DNA from: a candidate division Hyd24-12 bacterium UBA5074
Lineage (GTDB): Bacteria; Fermentibacterota; Fermentibacteria; Fermentibacterales; Fermentibacteraceae
NCBI GenBank assembly: GCA_002414865.1
Contig: DIAQ01000033.1
Location: 26,958-90,957 of the forward strand
Length of the DNA stretch: 64,000 nucleotides
Direction of reading: 5' to 3'
How positions within the stretch are numbered: the first letter of the stretch is position 1; each line of letters opens with the position of its first letter. This document shows, in pieces, positions 4,116-42,958 of the stretch. The notes under the pieces were generated by a model. The model was not told the DNA's origin. It saw only the letters and a list, made by a program, of their open reading frames with translations, and ran no database searches. The translations under genes and the position numbers were made by a program.

Positions 4116-4155
4116 ACACCCGCGCCGCCGCGGTGCCGGCATTTGGAGGCCTCAC

Positions 4156-5451
4156 TTGATAGAGCGCTACAGCATCCCCGAGATGGAGGCGATCTGGTCG
4201 GACGAGAACCGCTTCTCGCGCTGGCTGGAGATCGAGCTGCTGGCCGTCGAAGCCCGCTGCGGGCTCGGTGCCGTTCCGAGAGCCGACCTGGATCTGCTGA
4301 GGAGCAAGGCCCGCTTCGACCCGGCCAGGATAGCCGTGATCGAGAACACAGTGAAGCACGATGTGATCGCATTCCTCATGTCGGTTTCGGAGAGCCTGGG
4401 ACCGGAGTCGAGGCATATTCACTATGGGATGACCTCCAGCGACATCCTCGATACCGCACTCGCCACGCAGCTCAGGGATGCGGGAGCGCTGCTGACCGGG
4501 GCGCTCGACGCCTGGGGCGGGTCGCTCGCGGGGCTCGTGAGGAGGACCAGGGGCATCCCCTGCATGGGGCGGACTCATGGAATGCACGCCGAGCCTACCA
4601 CCTTCGCCCTCAAGTTCGCAGGGCACCATGCCGAGTACCGGAGGTGCAGGGAGAGGCTGGAATCGGCGCTCGCAGACGTATGCACGGGCAAGCTCAGCGG
4701 AGCGGTGGGCACCTATGCCCATCTGGATCCCTCGGTGGAGGAGTTCGTCTGCGCGAGGCTGGGCCTCCGGCCTGAAACCGTGGCCACCCAGGTGGTCCCG
4801 CGAGACCGCCACGCGGCGTTCCTTTGGGCCCTGGCCAGCATCGGGGGAGCCCTGGAGCGCTTCGCCACGGAGATCAGGCACCTCCAGAGGACCGAGGTCT
4901 CGGAGGCGGAGGAGCCCTTCGGCAAGGGCCAGAGGGGCTCGAGCGCCATGCCGCATAAGCGGAATCCCATCACCTGCGAGAGGCTCTGCGGGATGGCCCG
5001 CCTCCTCCGGTCCTACCTGCTCGTGGGTCTAGAGGACACCTGCCTCTGGCACGAGCGCGACATCAGCCACTCGTCCGCGGAGAGGTTCGTCCTCCCGGAT
5101 GCCTGCGGCGTGGCCCTCTACTCGCTCAGGAAAGCCTGCGAGGTGGCCGACGGGCTTTGCATCTGCGAACAGGGCGCGATGGGGCACCTGGCCTCGGCGG
5201 GCGACGGCTTCTACTCCCAGACGGTCCTGCTCGCGATGGTCGACTCGGGAGCCGACAGGAACGCTGCATACGCCTCTGTCCAGGCAGCTGCCGCGCGGGC
5301 ATCGGAAGCCGGGAGGAGCTTCGTCGAGGAGGTCTGCGGAGATCCTTCGATAACCGCCGTCCTGCCATCCGGAAGCATCCGCGCCATGTGCAGCCTCGAG
5401 CGGCACCTCAGGCACGAAGGGGATATCCTGAAGCGGGCAGGCCTGGAGTAG
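4156..5451 (+). CDS. purB: Adenylosuccinate lyase
   Basis: The N-terminus MIERYSIPEMEAIWSDENRFSRWLEIELLAVEA is a canonical PurB start. Fumarate-lyase family signature. Confidence 0.93.
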   Translation: MIERYSIPEMEAIWSDENRFSRWLEIELLAVEARCGLGAVPRADLDLLRSKARFDPARIAVIENTVKHDVIAFLMSVSESLGPESRHIHYGMTSSDILDTALATQLRDAGALLTGALDAWGGSLAGLVRRTRGIPCMGRTHGMHAEPTTFALKFAGHHAEYRRCRERLESALADVCTGKLSGAVGTYAHLDPSVEEFVCARLGLRPETVATQVVPRDRHAAFLWALASIGGALERFATEIRHLQRTEVSEAEEPFGKGQRGSSAMPHKRNPITCERLCGMARLLRSYLLVGLEDTCLWHERDISHSSAERFVLPDACGVALYSLRKACEVADGLCICEQGAMGHLASAGDGFYSQTVLLAMVDSGADRNAAYASVQAAAARASEAGRSFVEEVCGDPSITAVLPSGSIRAMCSLERHLRHEGDILKRAGLE

Positions 5452-5541
5452 CGCCGGTGGCCCCCGGGCGCACCTTGGCCCATATTCGCTTCGGAGCAGG
5501 CCGGCATCTGCCGGTCCTTTCTCCGTGAAGGGTGGTCGGGA

Positions 5542-6696
5542 GTGGAAATTCTCATGCTCTTCCTTGGCCTGATCGTCGGCGCGACGGTGGCCTGGCTCTG
5601 GGTCTCGGCCGCGATGAAGCGCAGGCTGCAGGTCGAGGAGGATCGGGCGGCCGGCCTGAACCGCGAGCTGACCACGATCAAGCACGAGAACCGCGAGGTC
5701 TGCTCCAACGTCACCCAGCAGGCGCGGGAGATCCAGAATCATCGCGACCTCGCCGTCCTGCTGCCCGAGCTGGTCAAGCAGATCTTCTCGGCGCGCTCCG
5801 TCAACGAGCTGGCCGACTTCGTGGCCAGGGCAGTCAGCATGATGACGAACACGGAGAAGGTTGCCGTCTTCCTATCCGACAGGACCGGCAGGCGTCTGGG
5901 CCTCGTCGAGGCCAGGGGGCTCTCCGACGTTCTCCAGATGCCGCTCGCATTGAATGTGGGCGAAGGTCATGTCGGCTTCTCCGCCGAGACCGGGAGGGTG
6001 TTCTCCATCGAGGACCTGGAGAAGGAGAGCACTCTCGTCAGGAAGCATATCGAGGACTCGGCCATCCCGGGCTACGCCCCCGAGCTCGCCGCCCCCATGA
6101 CCAGCCAGGGAGTGCTCTACGGAGTGCTCTGCCTCAACGGCATACCCAAGGGGTCCAACCTGGTGAGGGAAAGGGTCCGGGCCATCGCCGCCATCGGGGC
6201 GGCGGCCAGCGAAAACATCAGGCTCCTCGAGAGATTCGAGACCGCTGCGGATCTCGACCCCGACACCGCACTCCCTGGGAAGAGCCAGATGCGCCACCGC
6301 ATGGATTCCGAGCTCGAGAGGGTCAGGCGCTTCAACAGCCCGCTCTCCATCATCGAGCTCCAGCTCCCTCAGGGAGCCTCCACCGACAGGCTCCTCGCCA
6401 AGGAGGTGATGCGCATGTGCGCCAACCAGCTCAAGGCCACCATGCGCAACATCGATACAGGCGTGCGCGTCGCGAGGGACCGGGTGATGCTCCTCCTCCC
6501 GGGCACGAATGCGGAAGGCCTGGTCAGCGTGGTCGCCCGCCTCGGAGTCGACCTCCCGGGCATGACCAACGAGGAGGGCGACAGGATCGCGTCCGTCAGG
6601 ATGCGCTTCCTCACCTGCGAACCCGGTGAGGACCTCTCGGTGGACCCTGTTCTCCAGAGGCTGGATCTGATGGAGTTCAGGGAGTTCTCATCCTGA
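5542..6696 (+). CDS. Membrane-anchored GAF domain protein with degenerate GGDEF-like C-terminal domain
   Basis: N-terminal TM helix, then a coiled coil, then a GAF-like block (VAVFLSDRTGRRLGLVEARGL...GEGHVGFSAETG). The C-terminal region is DGC-like (RFNSPLSIIELQL...RVARDRVMLLLPG) but lacks the GG(D/E)EF motif. Confidence 0.55.
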   Translation: MEILMLFLGLIVGATVAWLWVSAAMKRRLQVEEDRAAGLNRELTTIKHENREVCSNVTQQAREIQNHRDLAVLLPELVKQIFSARSVNELADFVARAVSMMTNTEKVAVFLSDRTGRRLGLVEARGLSDVLQMPLALNVGEGHVGFSAETGRVFSIEDLEKESTLVRKHIEDSAIPGYAPELAAPMTSQGVLYGVLCLNGIPKGSNLVRERVRAIAAIGAAASENIRLLERFETAADLDPDTALPGKSQMRHRMDSELERVRRFNSPLSIIELQLPQGASTDRLLAKEVMRMCANQLKATMRNIDTGVRVARDRVMLLLPGTNAEGLVSVVARLGVDLPGMTNEEGDRIASVRMRFLTCEPGEDLSVDPVLQRLDLMEFREFSS

Positions 6697-28727: not shown

Positions 28728-29435
28728 TCATATGGCTTTTTGCAGCATATAGATACCTGCCAGGATGACGAGGGCTCCGGCGGCGCGCCGCAGGATGGCG
28801 AGAGCTCGGGACTTCTCGTTCCAGCTCAGCAGTCTGCAGGCTGTCCCGGAGAAGGTGCCTGCGGCGACGATCACGCCACAATGGCCGATGGCGAAGCAGC
28901 CCATCATGGCTGCGGAGAGGACTGGCCGAACGGCCTGTGCGGCCAGGACCACCCCGAGCAGCGGGGCGATGAAGGCAAAGGTGCAGGGCCCCGCCGCAGC
29001 CCCGAAGACGAGGCCATAAAGGGCGGAACCCAGGAGCCCCGACCTTCTCCGTCCCGGCATCGCAACTCGTGGCGCCGGCAGGGTGAAGACCTCCATCAGG
29101 TTCAGACCGAACAGCATCAGCAGGACGGCAAGAATGATGCCCCCGGGTTTCCCCATGTCTCCCGCAATGCGCCCCGCGCTTAACGTGATGACTCCCAGGG
29201 CCGAAACGGCAACCAGGACCCCGGCGGCGAATGACGCCGAGATTCGGAACGCCTTTCTCGTGGAGGTCTCGGGATCCTTCGAGATGTAGCCCACGAGCAG
29301 GGGGATGCTGGCGAGATGGCATGGGCTGAGAAGAATGCTCAGCATTCCCCAGACCATGGCGGCGGCAAGCCCGACAACGGGGGAGGATCCTTCGACCGCT
29401 CTCCCCAGGCCGGTCAGGAATTCACTCACCGGCAT
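28728..29435 (-). CDS. ccdA: Cytochrome c biogenesis protein CcdA / DsbD-core transmembrane thiol-disulfide electron transporter
   Basis: LSPC motif (SILLSPCHLASIPLLVGYI) and the second Cys region (GAAAGPCTFAF). Six TM helices. Confidence 0.8.
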   Translation of the reverse strand: MPVSEFLTGLGRAVEGSSPVVGLAAAMVWGMLSILLSPCHLASIPLLVGYISKDPETSTRKAFRISASFAAGVLVAVSALGVITLSAGRIAGDMGKPGGIILAVLLMLFGLNLMEVFTLPAPRVAMPGRRRSGLLGSALYGLVFGAAAGPCTFAFIAPLLGVVLAAQAVRPVLSAAMMGCFAIGHCGVIVAAGTFSGTACRLLSWNEKSRALAILRRAAGALVILAGIYMLQKAI

Positions 29436-29838
29436 CCTCCGGTATCACGTCGTATCCCAGCTCGGTCCACTTCGCGACCATGTCCTCGGCCGATACGACG
29501 CCCTCGTGCCTCCAGAGCTCGGTTCCGGTCTCCGAGAGGAAGATCTGCGTCGGGATCACCCTGATGCCGTAGGTGCGCGCTGCCGCCTGGTTCTCGTTCA
29601 CGTCGACGAAAGAGATCTCGAGGGTCCCCTGCGTCATGTCCTCGAGACGGTCGAGCTCGGTCATCATGGTCTGGCACGGTATGCACATCTGCGAACCGAG
29701 ATCGAGGACCTTCGGCAATGCCGTCAATGTCGTGTCCGGAGCTTCCAGGCGCTCGGTTCCCGTGTCACGGGTCAGGACTGCTGCGGCTGCAAGCCCGCCG
29801 ACTACCAGGACTATCGCTGCCTTGGTCAATGTCTTCAT
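29422..29838 (-). CDS. Membrane-anchored thioredoxin-fold protein (TlpA/ResA-like), CxxC = CIPC
   Basis: N-terminal TM anchor. Thioredoxin fold with CIPC. Overlaps ccdA by 14 nt. Confidence 0.75.
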   Translation of the reverse strand: MKTLTKAAIVLVVGGLAAAAVLTRDTGTERLEAPDTTLTALPKVLDLGSQMCIPCQTMMTELDRLEDMTQGTLEISFVDVNENQAAARTYGIRVIPTQIFLSETGTELWRHEGVVSAEDMVAKWTELGYDVIPEDAGE

Positions 29839-29872
29839 CGGAGTGAATCCGTCCTTCGGAATCTGATGTTGT

Positions 29873-30112
29873 CTACTTCCCGGTCAGTATGGCCGCTATC
29901 TCATCCACTCCCGGGACTCTGCCCATGACCCTGACCTCTCCATCCACAACGAGAGCCGGAGTCATCATCACGCCGAACTTCATGATCTCCCTGATGTCCG
30001 TAACCTTCTCGATCGACACGCCCTGGAGCTCCGCCTTCTCGACTGCCTTGTGGACGTGCTCCATGAGCTTGATGCATTTCGGGCAGCCCGTTCCCAGCAC
30101 TTGAATAGTCAT
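29873..30112 (-). CDS. Small thioredoxin-family protein (redox-active disulfide protein 2-like), CxxC = CPKC
   Basis: MTIQVLGTGCPKCIK. This 79-aa family commonly pairs with COG0701 permeases in ars-type operons. Confidence 0.8.
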   Translation of the reverse strand: MTIQVLGTGCPKCIKLMEHVHKAVEKAELQGVSIEKVTDIREIMKFGVMMTPALVVDGEVRVMGRVPGVDEIAAILTGK

Positions 30113-30132
30113 CTCTTACCTCCAGTTCCGCA

Positions 30133-31428
30133 TCAGCTCGCGAAGGTGCCGAAGATGAACCCGGTGAAAGTTGCGAGAACGACCACGAGAGAAACGAAGA
30201 CCACCGTTTTCTTCGCACCCATGATGCTCCTGAGGACGAGCATGCTGGGCAGGGACAGTGCCGGGCCGGCAAGGAGAAGGGCCAGGGCCGGGCCTTTGCC
30301 CATCCCGGAACCGAGCAGTCCCTGAAGGATGGGTATCTCCGTGAGCGTGGCGAAGTACATCAGCGCGCCGGAAACGGAGGCGAAAAGATTCGCGAGCAGC
30401 GAGTTGCCGCCGACGGCTCCAGCGATCCATGTGGATGGGATCATCGCCTCATGGCCGGGCCTGCCCAGGAGGAACCCGGCGACGAGCACGCCTCCCAGGA
30501 GCAAGGGAATGATCTGACGGGCGAAGCCGACCGTCGCGTCGAACCACTCCCGGAGCTGGGGGCCACCTGTGGCGGAGAGGGCGCCCACAGCGATGACACC
30601 AGCCGAGAACGCGTAGATCGGATGCTCCGGCCACAGCAGCGCAAGGGCAGTGACGGGAACGGAACCCAGAAGCACTCTCCTCCATCCGACCTTGAACTCG
30701 AGCACGAGGATCACGGCCAGGAGAACGGAGAATGCCGATGTGATGTACCACTTGATCTGAGCTACGAAGGCCCAGAAGGGAGCCGCCCCTTCAGGGCTGC
30801 CCCAGTTGGCGAAGACGAGGATTCCGGCCATGGAGGCGAAGTACAGAGCTGTTTTCCAGAGTGGTCGCTGAGGAGCCCCCGGCGCCGTCGCCATGCTGGT
30901 TCGCGTCTTCTCTGACGAAGCCTTGCGGAAGAACAGGCTCATCAGGAGGCCGATGACAACGCTGAAGGCTACTGCGCCGACGGCGCGGGCGACTCCGATC
31001 TCCAGCCCGAGCACCCTCGCCGTCATCACGATGGCCAGGATATTGATGGCGGGGCCGCTGTATAGAAATGCCGTCGCTGGCCCGAGCCCTGCTCCCATCG
31101 TATAGATGCCGGCGAAGATGGGCAGCACCGTGCACGAGCAGACGGCCAGAACGGTCCCGGATACCGAAGCGACTCCGTACGCCTTGAATCTGTTCGCCCC
31201 CGGTCCGAGGTATCGCAGGACGGAGTCCTTGTTCAGGAAGACGCCGATGGCGCCCGCGATGAACAGGGCGGGGACCAGGCAGAGGATCACATGAAGGCGG
31301 GCGTATTCGTTGAGCATGAAGAGGGATTCCCGGACTGCACCCTCGAACCGCGGCGAACCGACCGGAAGGAACCAGGCTGCGAGAAGAGCGGCAGCCAGGA
31401 GGAGAAGCGTCTTCGTCGTCGAAGTCAC
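30133..31428 (-). CDS. COG0701/DUF318 permease (ArsP-like), CSC motif
   Basis: Polytopic membrane protein with the LAVCSCTVLPIF motif. GTG start overlaps the arsR stop (GTGA). The ATG at 31515 would overlap arsR by 90 nt. Confidence 0.75.
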   Translation of the reverse strand: MTSTTKTLLLLAAALLAAWFLPVGSPRFEGAVRESLFMLNEYARLHVILCLVPALFIAGAIGVFLNKDSVLRYLGPGANRFKAYGVASVSGTVLAVCSCTVLPIFAGIYTMGAGLGPATAFLYSGPAINILAIVMTARVLGLEIGVARAVGAVAFSVVIGLLMSLFFRKASSEKTRTSMATAPGAPQRPLWKTALYFASMAGILVFANWGSPEGAAPFWAFVAQIKWYITSAFSVLLAVILVLEFKVGWRRVLLGSVPVTALALLWPEHPIYAFSAGVIAVGALSATGGPQLREWFDATVGFARQIIPLLLGGVLVAGFLLGRPGHEAMIPSTWIAGAVGGNSLLANLFASVSGALMYFATLTEIPILQGLLGSGMGKGPALALLLAGPALSLPSMLVLRSIMGAKKTVVFVSLVVVLATFTGFIFGTFAS

Positions 31429-31754
31429 TGCTTGTTCTCCTTCGGGCAGGCCGGGAGCCTGCAGGCCCCTCCCGCGATCACGTTCTCCACGCACTGGAAG
31501 AAATCGAGGACGCATCTCACCGCGAGGGTGTAGTACACCTTCGTGCCCTCCTTGCGGTCCGCCGCGAGGCCCGCGCTTCTAAGGACGGAGAGGTGTCTCG
31601 ACACCGTAGAGATGTCCAGGCCGACCTCTGCGGAGAGGTCGCCCACGGTCCTCTCACCTGTCGAGAGCGCATCCACGAGATGCAGGCGGGCGGGATTGGC
31701 GAGGGCGGAGAGTATCGATGCCCTTCTTCGATAGATCTCGTTGTTCGACGACAT
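31425..31754 (-). CDS. arsR: ArsR/SmtB family transcriptional regulator
   Basis: HTH block LSALANPARLHLVDALSTGERTVGDLSAEVGLDISTVSRHL. C-terminal Cys pairs. GGAGGAG ribosome-binding site. Confidence 0.85.
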   Translation of the reverse strand: MSSNNEIYRRRASILSALANPARLHLVDALSTGERTVGDLSAEVGLDISTVSRHLSVLRSAGLAADRKEGTKVYYTLAVRCVLDFFQCVENVIAGGACRLPACPKENKQ

Positions 31755-31895
31755 GGTTCTCCTCCTTGCAAACTTATGCAAATATACAAATATTCGTTCC
31801 TGGATCAACAGGAGCTCGATCTTGGCAATCGCGGACATTTCCGCGATACTGATCGAAACCGCGTGGAAAAGCAGCCTTGCATGCGAGGAGGCAAG
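31755..31895. promoter_or_regulatory. AT-rich divergent intergenic region (putative arsR operator / bidirectional promoters)
   Basis: The only AT-rich stretch for kilobases. Direct repeat CAAATAT-A-CAAATAT and palindromic TTGCAA, between divergent arsR and the selenoprotein candidate. Confidence 0.45.
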
Positions 31896-32537
31896 ATGGG
31901 GAAGATTCTGGCTGTTCTGCTGCTGGCCGTGCTGCCCGTCACCGCAGCCACCATAACGGTCGGCAGCCCTCAGATATCGTCGAGCGATCCCTGGTGCGGC
32001 TCCTGAAGCCCCCAGATGCGCTACCAGGCGGTAGTGCTGGGCGAAGAGATGCAGGGAGCCTGTGACATCCTCTCGGTGGCATGGCAGCGGACCACTTCGG
32101 GGAACGACCAGGGCCATTACTATGACGTCAACATCTACATGGGCCTCTGTGCATCGGACCAGCTCGGCTCGGTCTTCGAAGACAACTGGGTGCCGGGCAC
32201 CAAGACGCTGGTATTCTCCACCGACCAGCTCGACCTGTCCGCCGGCGTCAACGAATGGGAGCCGATCACGCTCGATGCGCCATACTGGTACGGCGGTCAG
32301 CAGAACCTGCTCCTCGAGGTCGAGTGGGGCTCCGCCAACACCTCCTACAGTTTCTACACATGGAAATGGGATACCGGGGCCGTGCGATCGATCAAGGCCG
32401 TCGACCTCGCCGCGCCGTCGGGCATAATGTCGACCCAGATGTCCGAGCTCCAGTTCACGGCAGACCTCGACCTGGAGGTCGACACCTTCGGCTGCATCAA
32501 GACCCTGTTCATCGGCGGAGAGGAGCGGGGGGAATGA
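31896..32537 (+). CDS. Candidate secreted selenoprotein 1 (signal peptide; C-G-S-U with in-frame TGA at 32004-32006)
   Basis: ATG sits 5 nt after GAGGAGG. Signal peptide MGKILAVLLLAVLPVTAA. The upstream and downstream ORFs share one frame and are split only by TGA. The downstream region is homologous to paralog 2 from the first codon after TGA. A hairpin begins 11 nt after TGA. Confidence 0.6.
32018..32037 (+). promoter_or_regulatory. Candidate bacterial SECIS-like hairpin (8-bp stem, AGGC loop) 11 nt downstream of TGA
   Basis: GCGCTACC-AGGC-GGTAGTGC. Same position and stem as in paralog 2. Confidence 0.45.
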
Positions 32538-33172
32538 AGATCCTGCCGCTGCCCCTGCTGGCCCTTGCATTCCTCGCGCCGGCCGCGACGATAACCATCG
32601 GGCAGGAGGAGCTCTCGGGCGGCGAGCCGCTCTGCTGCTCCTGAGTCGAGTCCCTGCACTACCAGGTGGTGGTGCTCGATTCGGAGATCGGGGGAGCGTT
32701 CCAGATCCAGGAGCTGTCACTCGTGCGGCACAGCTCGGGTTCTACGCCCGCCCCGACGAACTTCAGCGATTTCCAGATCTGGTTCGGACTGACCGATTCC
32801 GACCAGCTCTCGTCGATGTTCGAGGACAATTTCATCCCCGGCACACGCACGCTCGTGTTCGACCGCGACTCGCTCTACCTTTCCGCGAGTCCGGGCGAGC
32901 AGATCGACTTCGAGCTGGACCAGCCCTTCTGGTACGGAGGAACGCACAACCTCGTGGTCGAGATCCTCTGGTCGGACGGCGAGGAGATCGGCTCCGAGTG
33001 CGTGTACACCTGGCAGTGGAACACGGGCGCCATGAGGTGCGCGTCAGGCCCGTACACGGCGTCCTCGGGCAGCCTCACCAGCATGATCCCGATGCTGGTC
33101 CTCACAGGAGTGCAGGCGCTCGACCAGACCACTTTCGCGGCGGTGAAGTCGTCCTTTTCCGGGAGCCCCTGA
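32534..33172 (+). CDS. Candidate secreted selenoprotein 2 (signal peptide; C-C-S-U with in-frame TGA at 32642-32644)
   Basis: ATG overlaps the gene 1 stop (ATGA). Signal peptide MKILPLPLLALAFLAPAA. Single frame interrupted only by TGA. About 40% identity to paralog 1 across the TGA. Hairpin 11 nt after TGA. Confidence 0.6.
32656..32675 (+). promoter_or_regulatory. Candidate bacterial SECIS-like hairpin (8-bp stem, AGGU loop) 11 nt downstream of TGA
   Basis: GCACTACC-AGGT-GGTGGTGC. Confidence 0.45.
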
Positions 33173-33288
33173 GCGGCGCCGGACGGGTTCCGAGCGATTT
33201 CCGGGATATCGATGCACATGACCCGGCAGGGATCCGGGGTCGCAGTGTTGCCTCCTCCGGGCGGCGCTTGGCAATATTCGCGTGCGGT

Positions 33289-33365
33289 GCGCCCGTAGCT
33301 CAGCTGGATAGAGCAGCGGACTTCTAATCCGCAGGTCTCGCGTTCGAGTCGCGACGGGCGTACCA
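33289..33365 (+). tRNA. tRNA-Arg (anticodon TCT)
   Basis: Cloverleaf GCGCCCG-TA-GCTC...CTTCTAA...TTCGAGT...CGGGCGT-A-CCA. CCA is encoded. G1-U72 wobble. Confidence 0.85.
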
Positions 33366-33371
33366 CTCTCC

Positions 33372-33399
33372 GGAAGGCCTTCCCGGCAGGCGGCCTTCC
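33372..33399 (+). terminator. GC-rich hairpin downstream of tRNA-Arg (GGAAGGCC...GGCCTTCC)
   Basis: 8-bp perfect stem with a 12-nt loop. No U-tract. Confidence 0.4.
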
Positions 33400-33478
33400 G
33401 TTCCACCATCTCCAGGCCCGCCCTCCCGTGGGCCGGCACCGACTCAAGGCTCCCGCACGGACCCGGGCACGATACGGA

Positions 33479-33506
33479 GGAAGGCCGCCCTAACGGACGG
33501 CCTTCC
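33479..33506 (-). terminator. GC-rich hairpin downstream of tRNA-Lys (GGAAGGCCG...CGGCCTTCC)
   Basis: 9-bp stem with a 10-nt loop. It shares the stem sequence of the hairpin at 33372. Confidence 0.4.
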
Positions 33507-33513
33507 TGCACGA

Positions 33514-33589
33514 TGGTACGCCCCCCGGGAATCGAACCCGGAACCCACGGATTAAGAGTCCGTTGCTCTACCAATTGAGCTAGGGGCGC
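33514..33589 (-). tRNA. tRNA-Lys (anticodon CTT)
   Basis: Reverse complement gives GCGCCCC-TA-GCTC...CTCTTAA...TTCGATT...GGGGCGT-A-CCA. Confidence 0.85.
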
Positions 33590-33597
33590 AAAAATCC

Positions 33598-33674
33598 TGG
33601 GGTGGGAGACCGGACTCGAACCGGCGACCACTTGATCCACAGTCAAGGGCTCTACCAACTGAACTACTCCCACC
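33598..33674 (-). tRNA. tRNA-His (anticodon GTG, with G-1)
   Basis: Reverse complement gives G-GTGGGAG-TA-GTTC...CTGTGGA...TTCGAGT...CTCCCAC-C-CCA. G-1 and C73 are typical of tRNA-His. Confidence 0.85.
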
Positions 33675-33707: not shown

Positions 33708-33757
33708 TGCGTCAAGCAATACAAGCTCTTGACGCAGCTTCCGCGGCAGGATACGCT
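33708..33757 (+). promoter_or_regulatory. Inverted repeat TGCGTCAAG-N11-CTTGACGCA overlapping a TTGACG-17 nt-TACGCT promoter-like element upstream of nrdR
   Basis: Perfect 9-bp arms at 33708-33716 and 33728-33736. TTGACG at 33729-33734 and TACGCT at 33752-33757. Confidence 0.35.
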
Positions 33758-33791
33758 TCGTCGACCAGACGCGAACGGGGGGCCCTTTCCG

Positions 33792-34250
33792 ATGAGATGC
33801 CCGCGCTGCGGGAGCATGGACGACAGGGTTGTCGATTCGAGGAGCGCCAAGGAGGGCAGGGCCACCCGGCGCCGTCGCGAATGTCTCGACTGCGGCTACA
33901 GGTACACCACCTACGAATTCATCGAGACCAGCTATCCCGGAGTCGTCAAGAAGGACGGGAGGCGCGAGCCTTTCGATACCGCCAAGCTGGAGAAGGGCAT
34001 CGCCAGGGCCTGCGAGAAGCGCCCGGTCTCCGCACAGGAGATCAAGGACGTCGTCGAGAAGCTCACTGCGCGGATCACGGAGGAATTCCCCGATGAGGTC
34101 AGCTCGGGTTTCATAGGAGAATGCGTGATGGAGACTCTTCGCGGGATCGACGAAGTCGCCTACGTAAGGTTCGCGAGCGTCTACAGGCAGTTCCGGGATG
34201 TCGCTCAGTTCAAGGAGGAGCTGGAGAGGCTGCTGAAGAACCAGAAGTGA
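33792..34250 (+). CDS. nrdR: Transcriptional repressor NrdR
   Basis: [17 protein letters not shown] zinc ribbon plus an ATP-cone. Confidence 0.92.
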
Positions 34251-34414
34251 GTTACCCGCCTTGTGGCGGCACTTCGGATTCCCTATGAATGGCCAGTCAC
34301 AGCAAGGCATTGGAGCATCCTGCAGGGTCGGGATGGAACACGCCGGTCCTTCCCGGGCGATTTCCTTCGACCATACAGGCTTGTTGCATCGGGAAGGTCT
34401 GTCCATGGAGGCTT

Positions 34415-35728
34415 ATGGGGAAACGCAGAACCTTTTCGGGGGGGGCGCACCCTGACGAGCGCAAGGAGCTGGCCGAGCACAGCGCCGTTCGGAAGCTGCC
34501 CGCGCCGAAGGTGATCCGGGTGGCCCTGTGCCAGCATCTCGGAGCCCCCTCGACGCCGCTTGTCGCCAAGGGTGACAGGGTTACGCGCGGCCAGGAGATC
34601 GGTGCTCAGAACGGCTTCATCAGCCTGCCCACCCATTCTCCGGTCGGCGGAACCGTGCTGGCTCTCGAGGATGCGGCGCTGCCGCACAGGAGGTCTGGCC
34701 CCACGATCGTGATCGAGACCTCTTCGGAGGAGGGAGGCGCGGTATTCGAGCCCTGGCCCGAATACTCCAGCCGTTCTCCCCAGGAGGTCATCGAGAGGAT
34801 AAGGGCTGCCGGAGTCTGCGGAATGGGGGGCGCGAGCTTCCCCACCCATGTCAAGCTCTCCCCGCCCAGGGACAAGAAGGTCGACACCCTCATCCTCAAC
34901 GGCGCCGAGTGCGAACCCTACCTCACCTCGGACGCCCGCCTGATGGTCGAGCGCACGGCCGACGTCATCGATGGGATGAGGATCCTGGCCCACGCTCTCG
35001 GAGTCGGGCGGGTCTTCGCGGGCGTCGAGGCCAACAAGCCGGAGGCAGCCGCCGCTCTCGAGGGAGCCGGCGCGGAAGTCATCACTCTGAAGGTGAAGTA
35101 TCCGCAGGGCGCCGAGAAGCAGCTGATCAAGGCCGTCACCGGGCGCGAGGTGCCGGTGGGAGGCCTTCCCATGGATGTCGGAGTCGTCGTGCAGAACGTC
35201 GGGACGGCGGCCGCAGCTGCAGAGGCCGTTCGCGACGGCATGCCCTGCATGCGGCGCATAGTCACCGTCTCGGGCGGTGGGATAAAGGCACCCGGCAATT
35301 TCGACGCATGCGTCGGCACCTCCTTCGCGGATCTCGTCGAGGCTGCGGGGGGCTACTCCGGAGAAGTCGTCAGGCTGCTCTCCGGAGGACCCATGATGGG
35401 CATCGCTCAGTTCACCGACGCCGTGCCCGTGACGAAGGGGACCAGCGGGATCGTCGCGCTGACCTCGCGCGAGGCGAGGTCGCTCTCCGAGGGTCCGTGC
35501 ATCAGGTGCGGGAAATGCGTGGACGCATGCCCGATGGGTCTGGCCCCGTGTCTCATCTCGGAAGCCGCGGAGCACTCCGGCTGGAAGTCGGCCGACGAAG
35601 CCGGCGCCCTGAGCTGCATGGCCTGCGGCACCTGCACCTTCGTCTGCCCCAGCTCCCGCTTCCTCGTCCATTACATCAAGAGGGCCCAGGAGGCAATCCG
35701 CGCCTCCAAGCGCTCCAGGGAGGCATGA
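34415..35728 (+). CDS. rnfC: Rnf electron transport complex subunit C
   Basis: GMGGASFPTHVKL NADH/FMN site. Two 4Fe-4S CxxCxxCxxxCP motifs. Confidence 0.9.
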   Translation: MGKRRTFSGGAHPDERKELAEHSAVRKLPAPKVIRVALCQHLGAPSTPLVAKGDRVTRGQEIGAQNGFISLPTHSPVGGTVLALEDAALPHRRSGPTIVIETSSEEGGAVFEPWPEYSSRSPQEVIERIRAAGVCGMGGASFPTHVKLSPPRDKKVDTLILNGAECEPYLTSDARLMVERTADVIDGMRILAHALGVGRVFAGVEANKPEAAAALEGAGAEVITLKVKYPQGAEKQLIKAVTGREVPVGGLPMDVGVVVQNVGTAAAAAEAVRDGMPCMRRIVTVSGGGIKAPGNFDACVGTSFADLVEAAGGYSGEVVRLLSGGPMMGIAQFTDAVPVTKGTSGIVALTSREARSLSEGPCIRCGKCVDACPMGLAPCLISEAAEHSGWKSADEAGALSCMACGTCTFVCPSSRFLVHYIKRAQEAIRASKRSREA

Positions 35729-36804
35729 TGGCTGAACCGCGCCTCTTCCAGCTGTCCATGTCGCCTCATGTGACATCGCCGCTCAACACGCGGCGGGTGA
35801 TGCTCGACGTGGTGACGGCCCTGCTGCCCGCCCTGGCGGGCGCGATCTGGTTCTTCGGCTTCGTCGACTCTCTGCTGCCCGTCCTCGTGAGCGTCGTCAC
35901 GGCCGTGGCTGCCGAGTACTTCTGCCTCAGGATAATGAAGCGGCCCGTGAACGCCGCGCTGGACGGCAGCGCGATCGTGACCGGCCTTCTGCTGGCCTAC
36001 AACCTGCCGCCGGGAGTCCCCTGGTGGCTGCCCGTCATCGGCTCGGGCTTCGCCATCGTGGTGGCCAAGCAGGCCTTCGGAGGTCTGGGGCACAACATGA
36101 TCAACCCAGCCCTGCTCGGCCGGGCCTTCCTGATGGCGAGCTTCCCGGTCCTGATGACATCCGGATGGCAGGCCCCCTTCGAGTGGAGCGCGCCGGAATC
36201 CCACTTCGAGACGTCCGGCATACCCGTGGAGAACCTGCAGGCCATCCCTGACGCCGACGCCATCTCCGGTGCCACGCCGCTGCGGGTGATGAAGGACTCC
36301 TTCACAATGGAGCGGCACCGCGGCAACGCCGTGAGGGCGCAGCTCGCGAGCGAGGGCACCTACCTCAACCTCTTCCTCGGTCGCCGCGGAGGCTGCATTG
36401 GGGAGACCTCGGGCCTCCTGCTCCTGCTGGGGGCGATCTACCTCGTGGTCCGCGGCGTCCTGGAGCTGAGGCTCCCGCTTAGCTACCTCGGCTCCGTGGC
36501 CCTCTTCGGATGGATCATCGGCGGCCCGGGCCTGCTCCAGGGGGATCCCCTGTTTTCCGTGCTCGCAGGCGGGGTGATCCTGGGCGGCTTCTTCATGGTC
36601 ACGGACATGGTCACCACGCCGGTCACGCCCTGGGGCAAGATCCTGTTCGGCTTCCTGGCCGGTTTCATCACGATCGTCATTCGACGCTGGGGAGGCTATC
36701 CGGAAGGATGCTCATACTCCATCCTCATCATGAACCTCGCCACGCCGCTGCTCGACCGGTTCACCCGGCCGAGGATCCTCGGGGAGGTGGGGAAGCATGC
36801 GTGA
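35725..36804 (+). CDS. rnfD: Rnf complex subunit D
   Basis: ATG overlaps the rnfC stop. NqrB/RnfD polytopic membrane protein. Confidence 0.88.
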   Translation: MMAEPRLFQLSMSPHVTSPLNTRRVMLDVVTALLPALAGAIWFFGFVDSLLPVLVSVVTAVAAEYFCLRIMKRPVNAALDGSAIVTGLLLAYNLPPGVPWWLPVIGSGFAIVVAKQAFGGLGHNMINPALLGRAFLMASFPVLMTSGWQAPFEWSAPESHFETSGIPVENLQAIPDADAISGATPLRVMKDSFTMERHRGNAVRAQLASEGTYLNLFLGRRGGCIGETSGLLLLLGAIYLVVRGVLELRLPLSYLGSVALFGWIIGGPGLLQGDPLFSVLAGGVILGGFFMVTDMVTTPVTPWGKILFGFLAGFITIVIRRWGGYPEGCSYSILIMNLATPLLDRFTRPRILGEVGKHA

Positions 36805-37411
36805 GATGATGCGCCTCGGCCTCATCCTGATGGGCATGAGTCTCATCTGCGCCGCTGCCCTGGGCTTCGTCAACAACCAGACGGAGGACAGGATCGCCGC
36901 CCAGAAGGAGCTCATCCGCCAGCAGGCCATGCAGTCCGTGTCGGCCTCCTTCGGTTCCGACCTCGAGTTCGACTCGCTGTCGGTGGCAGGCCTGGCCAAC
37001 CCCTACGAGGAGACAGGCAGGGTTCTGACCCCCATGGAGATCGTCTCCGGCGGCAGGCGGGTGGGCTTCGTGTTCACGGCCTACCGCAAGGGCTACTCGA
37101 GCGTCATCGAGACCCTCGTCGCGGTCGACACCACCGGGGTGATCTGCGGCAGCAGCATCCTCTACCAGTCCGAGACGCCGGGCCTGGGCACGAAGGCGCA
37201 GGCGCCCGAGTGGATGGCGCAGCTCGCCGGCCGTGACGAGAACGCCCTCGCCGTGGACAAGGACGGCGGGGAGATACACTCCATCACCGGGGCCACCGTC
37301 AGCTCCAGGGCGATAGTCGGCTCGGTCGCCGAGGGCCTGGAGGCCATGAGGGCGGCGGGGCTGTTCGTCGCAGGAGCCCCTGCCGCAGCTGCTGCCGGAG
37401 GTGCTGAATGA
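36797..37411 (+). CDS. rnfG: Rnf complex subunit G (FMN-binding)
   Basis: SITGATVSSRA FMN-attachment motif. Confidence 0.88.
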   Translation: MREMMRLGLILMGMSLICAAALGFVNNQTEDRIAAQKELIRQQAMQSVSASFGSDLEFDSLSVAGLANPYEETGRVLTPMEIVSGGRRVGFVFTAYRKGYSSVIETLVAVDTTGVICGSSILYQSETPGLGTKAQAPEWMAQLAGRDENALAVDKDGGEIHSITGATVSSRAIVGSVAEGLEAMRAAGLFVAGAPAAAAAGGAE

Positions 37412-38016
37412 GCAGGTGGAAGGATCTCACCAACGGGTTCTACACCGAGAACCCGATCTTCAGGATCACACTCGGGATGTGTCCCTTCCTCGCCCTCAGC
37501 ACCTCGGTGCAGAACGCGGTCGGGATGGGCTCTGCAGCCACTTTCGTGCTCATCTGGTCGAACGTGGCGATCTCCGCGCTCCGCAACTTCATACCGGACA
37601 AGATCCGGATTCCGTGCTACATCGTCTTCATCGCAACCTTCGTGAGCCTGGTCGACATGGTCATGGCCGCGTTCATGCCACCTCTCCACAAGGCACTCGG
37701 CATCTACATCCCGCTCATCGTGGTCAACTGCATCATCCTGGGCCGCGCCGAGGCCTTCGCGAACAAGAACACGGTCATGAGCTCGTTCCTCGACGGCATC
37801 GGGATGGGAGTGGGCTTCACCCTCGCCATGCTCCTGATGGCCTCGATCAGGGAGATCCTCGGCAACGGCACATGGTACGGCATCAACATCCTGGGCCATG
37901 CCTACACCAGCCAGCCTGTGCTGCTCGCCATCCTCCCGCCGGGAGCCTTCATACTGATGGGCTTCGTGCTCGGCGTCTTCGCCATCATCGACCGCAGGAA
38001 GGAGCGTGCAGCGTGA
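37408..38016 (+). CDS. rnfE: Rnf complex subunit E
   Basis: NPIFRITLGMCPFLA is an RnfE/NqrD signature. Confidence 0.88.
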   Translation: MSRWKDLTNGFYTENPIFRITLGMCPFLALSTSVQNAVGMGSAATFVLIWSNVAISALRNFIPDKIRIPCYIVFIATFVSLVDMVMAAFMPPLHKALGIYIPLIVVNCIILGRAEAFANKNTVMSSFLDGIGMGVGFTLAMLLMASIREILGNGTWYGINILGHAYTSQPVLLAILPPGAFILMGFVLGVFAIIDRRKERAA

Positions 38017-38651
38017 GCCCGGCTCTACTGCTCTCGGCGGCCGTCTCTTCCACCGGTGCGGGAGACGGGGGCTTCGCCCAGATCATGGGTCTCGTGATAG
38101 GCGGCATCCTGATCAACAACTACGTCCTGTCGCGATTCCTCGGCATCTGCCCGTTCCTCGGGGTCTCGAAGCAGCTCGACTCGGCCATCGGCATGGGCGC
38201 CGCCGTGGTTTTCGTCATGGCGATGACCGGTGCGGCGTGCTGGGCTCTCTGGGAGCTGGTCCTGATCCCGATGCACCTCGAGTACCTTAGCACGATCGTC
38301 TTCATCCTCATCATCGCCGCCCTGGTCCAGCTCGTGGAGATGATCCTGCTGAAATACAGCCCCGCCCTCTACAAGGCCCTCGGGATCTATCTCCCGCTCA
38401 TCACGACGAACTGCGCCGTCCTCGGCGTCGCAGTTCTCAACAAGGACGCCGGCTACAACCTGGCGATGAGCGTCATCAATGCAGTGTCGGGCGCCCTCGG
38501 GTTCGGCCTGGCTCTCATCCTGATGGCCGGCTTGAGGATGAGGATGGAGTACTCGGACATCCCCCTGGCCCTAAGAGGAAAACCCATCACCTTCATCCTC
38601 GCGGGCCTCATGTCCATAGCCTTCCTCGGCTTCGCCGGGCTGGGGGTGTAG
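38013..38651 (+). CDS. rnfA: Rnf complex subunit A
   Basis: GTG overlaps the rnfE stop. NNYVLSRFLGICPFLGVS is an RnfA/NqrE signature. Confidence 0.88.
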   Translation: MSPALLLSAAVSSTGAGDGGFAQIMGLVIGGILINNYVLSRFLGICPFLGVSKQLDSAIGMGAAVVFVMAMTGAACWALWELVLIPMHLEYLSTIVFILIIAALVQLVEMILLKYSPALYKALGIYLPLITTNCAVLGVAVLNKDAGYNLAMSVINAVSGALGFGLALILMAGLRMRMEYSDIPLALRGKPITFILAGLMSIAFLGFAGLGV

Positions 38652-38652
38652 G

Positions 38653-39708
38653 ATGCACTCCCTAATCATCCAGGCGATGATCTCCTCGCTCCAGGCTCCC
38701 GCTCTCGGCGAAGCGGTCGCCATCCCGGCCGCGCTGCTGGGAGCCACCGGCCTGCTGCTCGGCGTCGGGCTCGCCGTCGCCGCCCGGAAGCTGGCCGTGG
38801 AGAAGGACCCGCTCGTCGCAGAGCTCGAAGCGCTGCTCCCGGGGGCCAACTGCGGAGGCTGCGGATTCCCTGGCTGCAGCGGCTTCGCCAGGGCGCTGGC
38901 CGAGAAGAGGGCCGAGCCCTCCTGCTGCGTTGCGGCCAATGCGGCGACGCTCTCCTCCCTGGCCAGGGCGATGGGTGTCGAGCTGTCCGAGCAGGTGCGC
39001 AAAGTCGCGCTCGTCCAGTGCAACGGCGGCCGTTCCGCCGTCGATGCCTTCGCCTACGACGGTCCCCGCTCCTGCACCTCGGCCATGCTCGTCATGGGAG
39101 GGTCGAAGGCCTGCAGGTTCGGGTGCCTCGGCATGGGTGACTGCGTGTCCTCCTGCCCGTTCGGTGCGCTCTCGATGGGCGAGAAGGGGATTCCCTCCGT
39201 GAACCGCGAGAAGTGCACCGGATGCGGAAAGTGCGTCTCGACCTGTCCCAAGAAGCTCATCGTCCTGTGGCCCGGGAACCGGGAGGTGGCCGTAGCCTGC
39301 AGCAACAGGGAGCGCGGACCCGTCGCCCGGAAGGGATGCGGCGTCGCCTGCATCGCCTGCGGGAAATGCGAGAAGGAATGCCCGGTCCAGGCGATCGCGA
39401 TCACCGACTTCCTGTCCCGCATCGATGCCGCGAAATGCATCAACTGCGGGATATGCGCCACGGTGTGCCCCACGGGCGCGATCATCGACAGGGCGCCGGC
39501 CCGCCCCAGGGCTTATATCGACACGAGCTGCATCGGCTGCACGATATGCGCCAAGGTGTGCCCCACCAAGGCAATAACCGGCGAGTTGAAGCAGAAGCAC
39601 GAGGTCGATGCCGCGAAGTGCGTGGGCTGTGGCCAGTGCGTTCCCAAGTGCCCCAAGAAGGCGATCAGGCTGATGGGTTCGCTGGCCTACTCCAAGGAGG
39701 TCCGCTAG
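38653..39708 (+). CDS. rnfB: Rnf complex subunit B (polyferredoxin, extended form)
   Basis: N-terminal anchor plus the GANCGGCGFPGCSGFA motif. Multiple 4Fe-4S ferredoxin repeats. Confidence 0.88.
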   Translation: MHSLIIQAMISSLQAPALGEAVAIPAALLGATGLLLGVGLAVAARKLAVEKDPLVAELEALLPGANCGGCGFPGCSGFARALAEKRAEPSCCVAANAATLSSLARAMGVELSEQVRKVALVQCNGGRSAVDAFAYDGPRSCTSAMLVMGGSKACRFGCLGMGDCVSSCPFGALSMGEKGIPSVNREKCTGCGKCVSTCPKKLIVLWPGNREVAVACSNRERGPVARKGCGVACIACGKCEKECPVQAIAITDFLSRIDAAKCINCGICATVCPTGAIIDRAPARPRAYIDTSCIGCTICAKVCPTKAITGELKQKHEVDAAKCVGCGQCVPKCPKKAIRLMGSLAYSKEVR

Positions 39709-39710
39709 CC

Positions 39711-41080
<1,370 letters not shown>

Positions 41081-41090
<10 letters not shown>

Positions 41091-42958
41091 TAGCAGGCAC
41101 CGCCGGCCACATCGACCACGGCAAGAGCTCTCTCGTCAGGTGGCTCACCGGGCGCGATCCCGACCGCCTGAAGGAGGAGAAGCTCCGGGGCATCACCATC
41201 GAGCTCGGATACGTCTTCATGCCCCTGCCGGACGGAGGCGTGCTCGCGTTCATAGACGTTCCCGGACACGAGAAGTTCGTCCGCCAGATGGTAGCAGGCG
41301 TCGCCACCGTGGATTTCTTCCTCCTGGTCGTGGCAGCCGACGAAGGGGTCATGCCCCAGACCCGCGAGCATTTCGATATCCTGAGGCTTCTGGGGGTCAG
41401 GGACGGAATGGTGGCTCTGACGAAATGCGACATGGTGGACCGGGAAGTCCAGGACATGGCGGAGGAGGAGGTCTCGGACCTGTTCGCCGGGGCCGGCCAT
41501 GCCTCGATCCCCGTCCACAGGGTCTCCTCCGTCACCGGGGAAGGCATGGAGGATCTGCGCGCGGCGTTGATCGCCAGGGCCGCCAGCATCAGGAGGAGGG
41601 ACGCCAGCGACCGCTTCAGGCTGGCCATCGACAGGGTCTTCACCCTCCAGGGCCACGGCACTGTCGTCGCCGGTACGGTTCTGTCCGGTTCGGTGCACAG
41701 CGGTGAGACCGTGGAGCTCCTGCCCGCCGGGAAACCTTACCGGGTCAGGGAGATACGAGTAAACGAGGGAAGGACCCAGGGGGCCGGCACGGCAGGGGAC
41801 AGGGTCGCCCTCAATCTGGTCGGTCTCGAGAAGGAGGACGCCTGGAGGGGGAGCTGCCTCGCAGTGCCGGGATGGCTCCAGGCCCGGAGCGGCTTCGACG
41901 CCGAGTGCACCATGCTTCCGGACGCCATGCTCGAACACAGGCAGAGGGTGCGTTTCCACACAGGGACCGCCGAGGTCATGGCCTGGGCCATACCGATCTC
42001 TACCGAGGGGCTCGCCCCGGGCATGACGGGCTTCGTCCATTTCGAGCTCGAGGAGCCCGTCGTCGCCGTTCCCGGCGACAGGTTCGTCATCAGGAGGTAT
42101 TCCCCGGTGTCCACCATCGGGGGAGGGCTGATACTGGAGGCCGGCACCGCCCGCATCAGGGCGAAGGCCAGGGACGAGCGCCTCAGGCGGGTTGAAATGC
42201 TCTCCGGGGGCGACATCCGGGGCATTCTCCTGGCCAAGCTCGCATCGAAGCGCTGGGAGGGATTCGCCCTGGCCGAGGCCTCCCGGGAGCTGGGCAGGGG
42301 AGCGGAGGAGATCGCGTCCGCGATGTCCTCCCTGGCAGCGGACGGGGAAGCGCTCATCCTCAGGGACGGCTCCGCGGAGAGAGCCGTGGCTGCATCGACA
42401 GCTTCCGAAGCCATGGCAAGGCTGACCGCAGCACTTTCGGACTATCACGCCGAGAGACCGCTCAGCGCAGGTCTTCTCTCCTCGCAGGTCGCTCGTCTCC
42501 TGCCCGAGGCGCCCCAGTGGTTCCTGAGGGGGATTCTCGGGAGGATGGCCGAGTCCTCGACCATCCGCAGATCCGGCGACAGGATCGCCCTCGGCTCCTT
42601 CCCCGCGGAGATCCCGGACCCTCTTCCCGCAAGCGTCCGCTCCCTTCTCGAAGCGGTCGGAGGCGCCGGCTTCCAGGGCTGGGAGCCGCCTCAGGGGACC
42701 GGCTCTGCGCTCGTCGAGTCCCTCCTCGAGCGGGGGCTGCTTCTCGAGCTCGAGAAGGGGCTGCTCACCTCTCCATCCGTCGCGAAGGATGCGGAGGCCT
42801 CTCTGAGATCCACATTCGGCACGGCCGGGTTCCGCCTCGGGGAACTGCGCCAGGCCCTCGGCGTTCCACGGAAAGCTGCCGTGCTCTGGGCCGAGCTGCT
42901 CGACCGGCTGGGCCTCACAGGCCGGAAGGGGGACCTCCGCTTCCTGACGGCCGGCTAG
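41081..42958 (+). CDS. selB: Selenocysteine-specific translation elongation factor SelB
   Basis: GTAGHIDHGKSSLVRWLTG G1 motif, EKLRGITIELGY, and an extended winged-helix C-terminal region of 625 aa. Overlaps selA by 10 nt. Confidence 0.88.

Follow-up and report, generated by a model that had tools for sequence, protein, structure and literature searches.

Two SECIS-like hairpins in tandem genes of a putative exported selenoprotein family from Fermentibacterota

The bSECISearch consensus model for bacterial selenocysteine insertion sequence (SECIS) elements, as summarised in PMC13188914 (Fig. 2A), describes a hairpin with a stem of 4–16 base pairs and a loop of 3–9 nucleotides. In this model (PMC13188914) the loop lies 16–37 nucleotides from the UGA codon and has a G at one of its first two positions that is usually followed by G or U, and the fold energy is −7.5 kcal/mol or lower. 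A paper on the structure of full-length SelB (PMC4605307) gives a stem of 6–8 base pairs and a conserved loop G ∼20 nucleotides downstream of the UGA. Here we examine two hairpins from candidate division Hyd24-12 bacterium UBA5074 (Fermentibacterota; Fermentibacteria; Fermentibacterales; Fermentibacteraceae), located in a window of 64,000 nucleotides, the whole stretch of DNA that was analyzed (contig DIAQ01000033.1 of assembly GCA_002414865.1, positions 26,958 to 90,957 of the forward strand). Each hairpin follows an in-frame UGA in one of two tandem genes, termed G1 and G2. Judging from sequence comparisons, the two hairpins are very probably bacterial SECIS signals that cause these UGA codons to be read as selenocysteine (Sec). 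The features concerned are as follows, in window coordinates.

31896–32537, + strand: gene G1, putative secreted selenoprotein, paralogue 1; 213 codons; signal peptide, PWCGS-U motif and beta-sandwich domain; a single in-frame TGA
32004–32006, + strand: putative Sec-UGA of G1, codon 37, in frame and in the same alignment column as the TGA of homologues
32018–32037, + strand: candidate SECIS hairpin 1, GCGCTACC-AGGC-GGTAGTGC (listed also as GCGCUACC-AGGC-GGUAGUGC), 11 nucleotides past the UGA
32534–33172, + strand: gene G2, putative secreted selenoprotein, paralogue 2; 212 codons; EPLCCS-U motif; a single in-frame TGA
32642–32644, + strand: putative Sec-UGA of G2, codon 37, in frame
32656–32675, + strand: candidate SECIS hairpin 2, GCACTACC-AGGT-GGTGGTGC (listed also as GCACUACC-AGGU-GGUGGUGC), 11 nucleotides past the UGA

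Geometry and folding of the hairpins

The SECIS element of E. coli fdhF (TGA-CACGGCCCATC-GGTTGCAGGTCTGCACC, a sequence confirmed under that annotation in 5419 of 5426 E. coli genomes) carries a 6-nucleotide loop, or in another reading a GGUC tetraloop with a closing A-U pair, on an upper stem of 5 base pairs. A U that bulges from the 5′ strand of this stem is required for binding by E. coli SelB. The window hairpins share with this element a location in the coding region immediately after the Sec-UGA, an 11-nucleotide spacer and a C-AGGU loop region. They differ in having a stem of eight uninterrupted pairs, six of them universally conserved, a loop of only four nucleotides and no conserved lower stem, and their loop G is ∼2 nucleotides further from the UGA. 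In overall geometry they agree both with fdhF and with the SelB structure paper (PMC4605307). Measured against the consensus model, the two hairpins conform in every feature and nothing in them contradicts it; they are an unusually uniform instance of it, owing to the fixed position of the stem within a conserved peptide motif. We assign them to the bacterial SECIS class and not to the E. coli fdhF subtype.

The initial annotation had placed hairpins with 8-base-pair stems and GG-containing loops of four nucleotides at these positions, 11 nucleotides past each UGA and at a distance of about 22 nucleotides that falls within the 16–37 nucleotide range. The sequence is as described, including the AGGC and AGGT loops. 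At both sites the spacer between TGA and stem is 11 nucleotides (32007–32017 at the first), the stem comprises eight pairs of which one is a G-U wobble, and the distance from UGA to loop is 19 nucleotides, inside the range of the model, with the first loop G at base 21 after the UGA. The figures of 11 and about 22 nucleotides are compatible, since one refers to the stem and the other to the loop. Because G-U wobbles in the stem would become A-C mismatches on the other strand, it is the sense RNA that is under selection.

Folds of downstream sequence recover a stable hairpin at both sites in contexts of 42 and 60 nucleotides. The 42-nucleotide fold energies are −18.4 kcal/mol at site 1 and −20.4 kcal/mol at site 2, with z-scores of −2.35 and −3.78. 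An 8-base-pair hairpin with a four-nucleotide loop lies 11 nucleotides past only two of the 678 plus-strand TGA triplets in the window, where ∼0.5 would arise by chance, and the core motif GCTAYCAGGYGRTRG is found in the window only at these two sites (0.06 expected). The two copies belong to paralogues, however, and hence are not independent events. A scan of the window for other TGA-interrupted open reading frames (ORFs) gave too much noise to be of use, since spurious long ORFs are numerous in this sequence, which is G+C-rich by inspection.

G2 and some other family members are able to form a lower stem that includes the UGA. A conserved lower stem of this type was considered and rejected, as RNAalifold finds no conserved lower helix across the family.

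Selection on the stem

A search of 5.8 billion database proteins returned 23 relatives of G1 and G2, and the DNA behind them comprises 43 genome loci and 68 metagenome loci (cited here by L numbers). The family set was obtained by a profile search across the DNA of all these loci, after which duplicates were removed. Covariation was assessed in an alignment of 42 sequences, and the wider hairpin survey covers 99 distinct Sec forms. A neighbor-joining tree was built from the protein with the hairpin region left out.

At least six contiguous pairs form at the anchored position in 95 of the 99 Sec forms, with stems of 6–8 base pairs across the family. The spacer is 11 nucleotides in 81 members, 14 in 17 and 17 in one, such that only whole-codon shifts occur; members with one or two extra codons have a UGA-to-loop distance of 22 or 25 nucleotides. 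The loop is AGGU in 81 members, AGGC in 8, AGUU in 5, AGGG in 4 and AGGA in 1. In the 42-sequence alignment the inner six pairs are formed without exception, although their composition varies: one pair is GC in 19 sequences, GU in 14 and AU in 9, another is UA in 29, UG in 10 and CG in 3, and a third is CG in 27 and UA in 15. The resulting covariation score is 0.33, as against 0.20 in shuffles (0 of 500 reach 0.33), and controls with a slid register score far lower. This hairpin is the sole consensus structure that RNAalifold predicts. Covariation of the stem extends over 40 further loci and, more broadly, over the 99 distinct homologues.

The hairpin could instead be a by-product of protein conservation of the R/H-Y-Q-V-V-V-L codons that has no function as RNA, and the initial annotation had recognized that selection on YQxVVL might account for the nucleotide conservation. 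The entire stem does lie within codons of the conserved peptide, and the last base of the stem, along with half of the four-base loop, comes from the CAG codon of Gln. Even so, we regard this explanation as highly improbable, on the basis of how paired codons change together. The pair that alternates between C-G and U-A joins the third, synonymous position of a Tyr codon on its 5′ side to the first position of a Val or Ile/Met codon on its 3′ side. The 5′ side has changed at least six times independently on the tree, and the U is matched by A in 24 of 24 cases, such that the use of UAC or UAU for Tyr follows whether the paired codon specifies Val or Ile/Met. A second-position pair joins Arg/His with Val/Ala, and the A-C mismatch never occurs there (0 of 96) even though each side has changed 8–13 times. 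The absence of this mismatch indicates that RNA structure forbids the combination of His and Ala, which would place A opposite C. The family is a clear case of an RNA signal within coding sequence that constrains both codon choice and amino-acid choice.

Codon usage within the stem leads to the same conclusion. The stem codons and the background frequencies of the same genes are:

Val+1: GTG in 79 of 81 (background GTG 0.24, GTC 0.40)
Val+2: GTA 56, GTG 16, GTC 0, GTT 0 (background GTA 0.14, GTC 0.40, GTG 0.24, GTT 0.22)
Ile+2: ATA in 16 of 16 (background ATA 0.22)
Arg−2: CGC in 71 of 74 (background CGC 0.17)
Gln: CAG in 99 of 99 (background CAG 0.93)

Third positions in the stem are therefore nearly fixed on codons that are otherwise rare (GTA, ATA and CGC), with third-position entropies of 0, 0.2 and 0.78 bits, whereas equally conserved residues elsewhere are saturated: values of 1.45–2.0 bits are seen at 22 further four-fold codon columns that are conserved in these genes. 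Among them is a Leu codon whose third base falls just outside the stem (1.67 bits).

A further comparison is provided by the three distinct members that carry Cys (TGC) at the Sec column, namely L035, L094 and L095/96. These forms, in which no recoding is needed, keep the protein fold yet have lost the hairpin or carry a degraded one. The 26-nucleotide fold energies of the three are −3.4, −1.8 and −8.2 kcal/mol, respectively, compared with a mean of −11.6 kcal/mol for the 99 Sec forms, and L035 and L094 have no hairpin. The near-invariant third positions of the stem and the loss of the hairpin in Cys forms rule against protein-level selection as a sufficient cause. From these comparisons we conclude that selection at the level of RNA, and not only protein conservation, is acting on the stem.

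The two most divergent Sec forms, L100 (635) and L102 (378), both with the sequence RPFCGS-U-GNS[IV]R[YH]QVLV, do not form the hairpin in its standard register. Instead they carry a shifted one, GGUACCAG-GUA-CUGGUACC or GCACCAG-GUU-CUGGUGC, and their closest relatives are the Cys forms L094–L096. Compared in sequence, the two groups look like a snapshot of SECIS decay following a change from Sec to Cys.

Two genes for Sec incorporation lie 7–9 kb downstream of G1 and G2, and the second overlaps the first by 10 nucleotides:

39708–41090, + strand: selA, L-seryl-tRNA(Sec) selenium transferase, exact start codon uncertain; TIGR00474, 510.6 bits (cut-off 267.9)
41081–42958, + strand: selB, Sec-specific elongation factor, 625 amino acids; TIGR00475, 302.5 bits (cut-off 242.25)

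The selA product has 49% identity to E. coli SelA by tblastn, and Pfam detects the beta-barrel, SelB-wing_2 and SelB-wing_3 domains of SelB, each above its cut-off. Agreement with the consensus model, covariation, frozen synonymous sites, the pairing of Sec and Cys forms with presence and loss of the hairpin, and the presence of selA and selB all support the SECIS-like character that had been proposed for these hairpins.

The SECIS-binding part of SelB is formed by its C-terminal winged-helix domains. In the mechanism that we envisage, when an in-frame UGA of G1 or G2 occupies the A site, the hairpin 11 nucleotides downstream would be positioned at the mRNA entrance of the ribosome. SelB encoded at 41081–42958, carrying GTP and Sec-tRNA(Sec), would bind the apical AGGY loop through its winged-helix domains and then deliver the tRNA, such that the UGA would be read as Sec and not as a stop. 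The expected products would be two paralogous exported proteins, each with a signal peptide, an N-terminal C-x-x-U loop and a CBM-like beta-sandwich domain. SelB binding, Sec insertion and the cellular location of the products are in each case predicted from sequence.

Several observations weigh against assigning the hairpins to SECIS elements. Although the fold is stable in downstream sequence, the 60-nucleotide contexts yield only modest z-scores (−1.35 and −1.56), and at site 1 a different structure has the lowest energy once upstream sequence is included in a 110-nucleotide context (z = 0.16). The upstream part of that context would lie under the ribosome during UGA decoding. Even so, the two checks named in the initial annotation as able to refute its reading, on fold stability and on covariation, both came out in its favor, the fold being stable downstream of the UGA. 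Rfam yields no match in the window at the gathering threshold other than three tRNAs, and none at E up to 10 in 31850–33250. The window stems have no counterpart of the bulged U of fdhF, and the Cys form L095/96 retains a 5-base-pair remnant of the hairpin. Family members are related sequences, such that raw counts overstate independent events and tree-based counts are the fairer measure. ARAGORN detects no tRNA(Sec) (selC) in the 64-kb window or in the 43 genome loci, and selD was not found in the window.

The encoded proteins and their family

Both genes begin with an ATG preceded by a ribosome-binding site (at 31896 and 32534; AGGAGG in the case of G1), and the ATG of G2 overlaps the TGA stop codon of G1 (ATGA). 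Their paralogous products share a common layout, consisting of a signal peptide followed by a short TITVG or TITIG strand, a loop whose last residues are P-W-C-G-S-U in G1 and P-L-C-C-S-U in G2, the [RH]-Y-Q-x-V-V-L motif and a domain of ∼165 residues. Neither protein, scanned with C in place of U, has a match in Pfam or NCBIfam at E values up to 1. An AlphaFold2 model of the mature G1 domain has a predicted local distance difference test (pLDDT) score of 89 and adopts a galactose-binding/CBM-like beta-sandwich.

A second Cys, Cys45, is located in the G1 sequence Y-M-G-L-C (the Cys of ‘GLC’, about 32148–32150). It is at least 90% conserved in the family and is replaced by Thr in G2. This residue could be a resolving partner of Sec.

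All 99 distinct Sec forms have the TGA at the identical column, with a signal peptide in frame upstream in the 98 for which upstream sequence is available; Sec forms far outnumber the three distinct Cys forms. Sec is preceded by Cys in a CxxU arrangement in 83 of 98 members and in a CU arrangement in nine, while four have Cys further upstream within eight residues and two have no Cys within eight residues.

All 23 database relatives are called as proteins of 152–173 amino acids that begin just after the TGA position, and they bear either no name or ‘hypothetical protein’. These start positions indicate that gene callers stopped at the TGA. In every public gene call examined, the family proteins are shortened and lack both their signal peptide and their Sec loop. 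The same gene calls would be expected if the TGAs were real stops, with a 36-residue leader ORF resembling a signal peptide followed by a separate protein, and with the hairpin serving in translational coupling or attenuation. G1 even has an ATG four codons past the TGA. However, many members have no start codon near this point: the first candidate in G2 is a GTG inside the hairpin, and members with ‘GSQNRYQ’ have none. There is no ribosome-binding site before 32016, whereas a strong one precedes 31896. Moreover, 98 sequences retain the reading frame upstream of the TGA, and in phase with it both the signal peptide and the P[WF]C[GA]S motif, Cys forms are uninterrupted ORFs through the TGA column, and the N-terminal strand is included in distant homologous domains. 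We therefore consider an arrangement of leader and separate protein highly improbable. If the UGAs are instead decoded as Sec, recognition of the SECIS elements would restore the true products.

Some uncultured bacterial lineages reassign UGA, and a genome-wide reassignment to Trp or Gly would also permit reading through these codons, as pseudogenes or assembly errors would account for their presence. None of these is more than barely conceivable here. TGA is the stop codon of both G1 and G2 and of 35 of ∼92 complete family genes, and UGA therefore also serves as an ordinary stop in these organisms. Each gene has exactly one internal TGA, always at the column aligned with Cys, and the same feature recurs with an otherwise intact frame in 99 distinct sequences from many independent assemblies. 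The G+C-richness of the window and its selA and selB genes are likewise contrary to reassignment, and Sec insertion remains the preferred account of the internal UGAs.

Every genome locus with a named taxon derives from Candidatus Fermentibacteria (Hyd24-12), Aegiribacteria or Sabulitectum, and the family appears, from the sequences recovered, to be restricted to Fermentibacterota. The tandem pair of type-1 and type-2 genes seen in the window is present also in L001–L007, L045–L048 and L078, and assemblies with several matches carry at least 3–5 copies, counting loci by source record. Among open-access papers, pairing Fermentibacter*, Fermentibacterota or Aegiribacteria with selenocysteine, selenoprotein or selenium terms retrieved nothing. 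The gene family appears to be undescribed, and its public annotation is systematically wrong.

The closest described proteins in terms of the Sec motif are CxxU selenoproteins such as SelW-like, GrdA and AhpD-like proteins (Table 1 of PMC13188914), with which the family shares a Sec separated from a preceding Cys by two residues; this arrangement is typical of redox-active selenoproteins (PMC13188914). The family differs from these in its predicted fold, which is a CBM-like beta-sandwich and not thioredoxin-like, in its signal peptide and in the dominance of Sec forms. Of the 119 prokaryotic selenoprotein families catalogued in the 2026 review, nearly every one has a domain identifier from Pfam, NCBIfam or another InterPro-based source (PMC13188914). 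The present family carries none of the identifiers given for most of these, because it has no Pfam or NCBIfam match. Foldseek finds no structure match to the family domain with E below 1e-3. CBM-like or PHR-type beta-sandwiches (PDB 7tog, 7tok and 3gbw) have 8–11% identity to the family and none is a selenoprotein; the likeness of the modeled domain to these structures is informative for fold class only, and not for function.

The signal peptide, the CxxU motif and the neighboring ArsR, thioredoxin, CcdA and selenium-metabolism genes described below suggest an extracytoplasmic role in redox chemistry or related to chalcogens or metalloids. On balance we lean slightly toward an undescribed, phylum-restricted and multi-copy family of extracytoplasmic, CBM-like proteins, almost all of them Sec forms, whose N-terminal CxxU loop would serve redox chemistry or the capture of selenium, sulfur or arsenic outside the cytoplasm. 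The SECIS reading indicates that Fermentibacterota, a common phylum of anaerobic digesters and sediments, use Sec and devote several genes per genome to a single Sec-dependent exported family; if the wider reading proves true, the phylum would also be strongly selenium-dependent. Predictors of selenoproteins that depend on plentiful Cys homologues are liable to overlook a family in which Sec forms predominate, and the authors of deep-Sep state such a limit for their own tool.

More distant beta-sandwich homologues (L103–L111) carry a residue other than Sec or Cys at the site, as in ...GTGTxxxxxPxxxxYNYSxxQQIYTxxE.... In these the domain is repeated up to seven times per protein, within ORFs of 847 to >1800 residues, several of which are ended by a contig edge. 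Two of the proteins start with an N-terminus resembling a signal peptide, and a Pfam scan of two members of the group returned no informative family.

Selenium-related and other neighboring genes

In locus L029 (metagenome-assembled genome binchicken_co67_278; 2520–6495), genes for a cysteine desulfurase, selD, yedF and a Se/S carrier are located directly upstream of a family member. The desulfurase is SclA-like and scores below the SclA cut-off. An in-frame TGA at 3836 in selD corresponds to Cys17 of the E. coli protein (TAVG-U-AAK), and this apparently Sec-containing selD indicates that decoding of UGA as Sec in the phylum extends to a classical selenoprotein. The hairpin 12 nucleotides past this UGA is weak (4 base pairs, GGGC-CGGGA-GCCC, z near 0). 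It was considered as a second template for SelB specificity in the phylum and rejected, being too weak.

Upstream of G1 is a divergent regulator gene that is a conserved neighbor and not part of the SECIS elements:

31425–31754, − strand: ArsR/SmtB-family regulator; NF033788, 80.7 bits

A regulator of the ArsR family adjoins family genes also in L044–L047, L026, L053 and L063. In the window it belongs to a minus-strand cluster (28728–31754) that encodes in addition an ArsP_1 permease, a thioredoxin-like protein of the MTH895/ArsE type, a thioredoxin whose N-terminus is hydrophobic and a membrane protein resembling CcdA/DsbD. The cluster of ArsP-type permease, MTH895/ArsE, thioredoxin and CcdA-like genes directly adjoins G1 and G2 here and lies ∼5 kb from the family genes in L001, L005 and L007.

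The permease scores weakly to the SO_0444 Cu/Zn efflux family (100 bits, cut-off 300), which has Sec (UxC) forms according to the 2026 review (PMC13188914); the window permease has Cys-Ser-Cys at the UxC position. Weak scores are also seen for the ArsR-family regulator to TsoR and for the CcdA-like protein to the selenoprotein TsoB. Between arsR and G1 there is a promoter-like sequence, TTGGCA-17-GATACT, at 31822–31850 on the + strand. It is overlapped by a perfect 8-nucleotide inverted repeat, ATCGCGGA-N4-TCCGCGAT, at 31828–31847, and by its position this repeat could be an operator of the ArsR-family regulator.

Just downstream of G2 are three tRNA genes (33289–33673), Arg-TCT on the + strand and Lys-CTT and His-GTG on the − strand, none of which is tRNA(Sec). 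Past these lies an ORF (33729–34250) whose translation is NrdR-like by eye. It is followed by a run of plus-strand ORFs at 34289–42958, identified by eye from their translations, which begins with an RnfC-like ORF (34289–35728) and has selA and selB as its last members.

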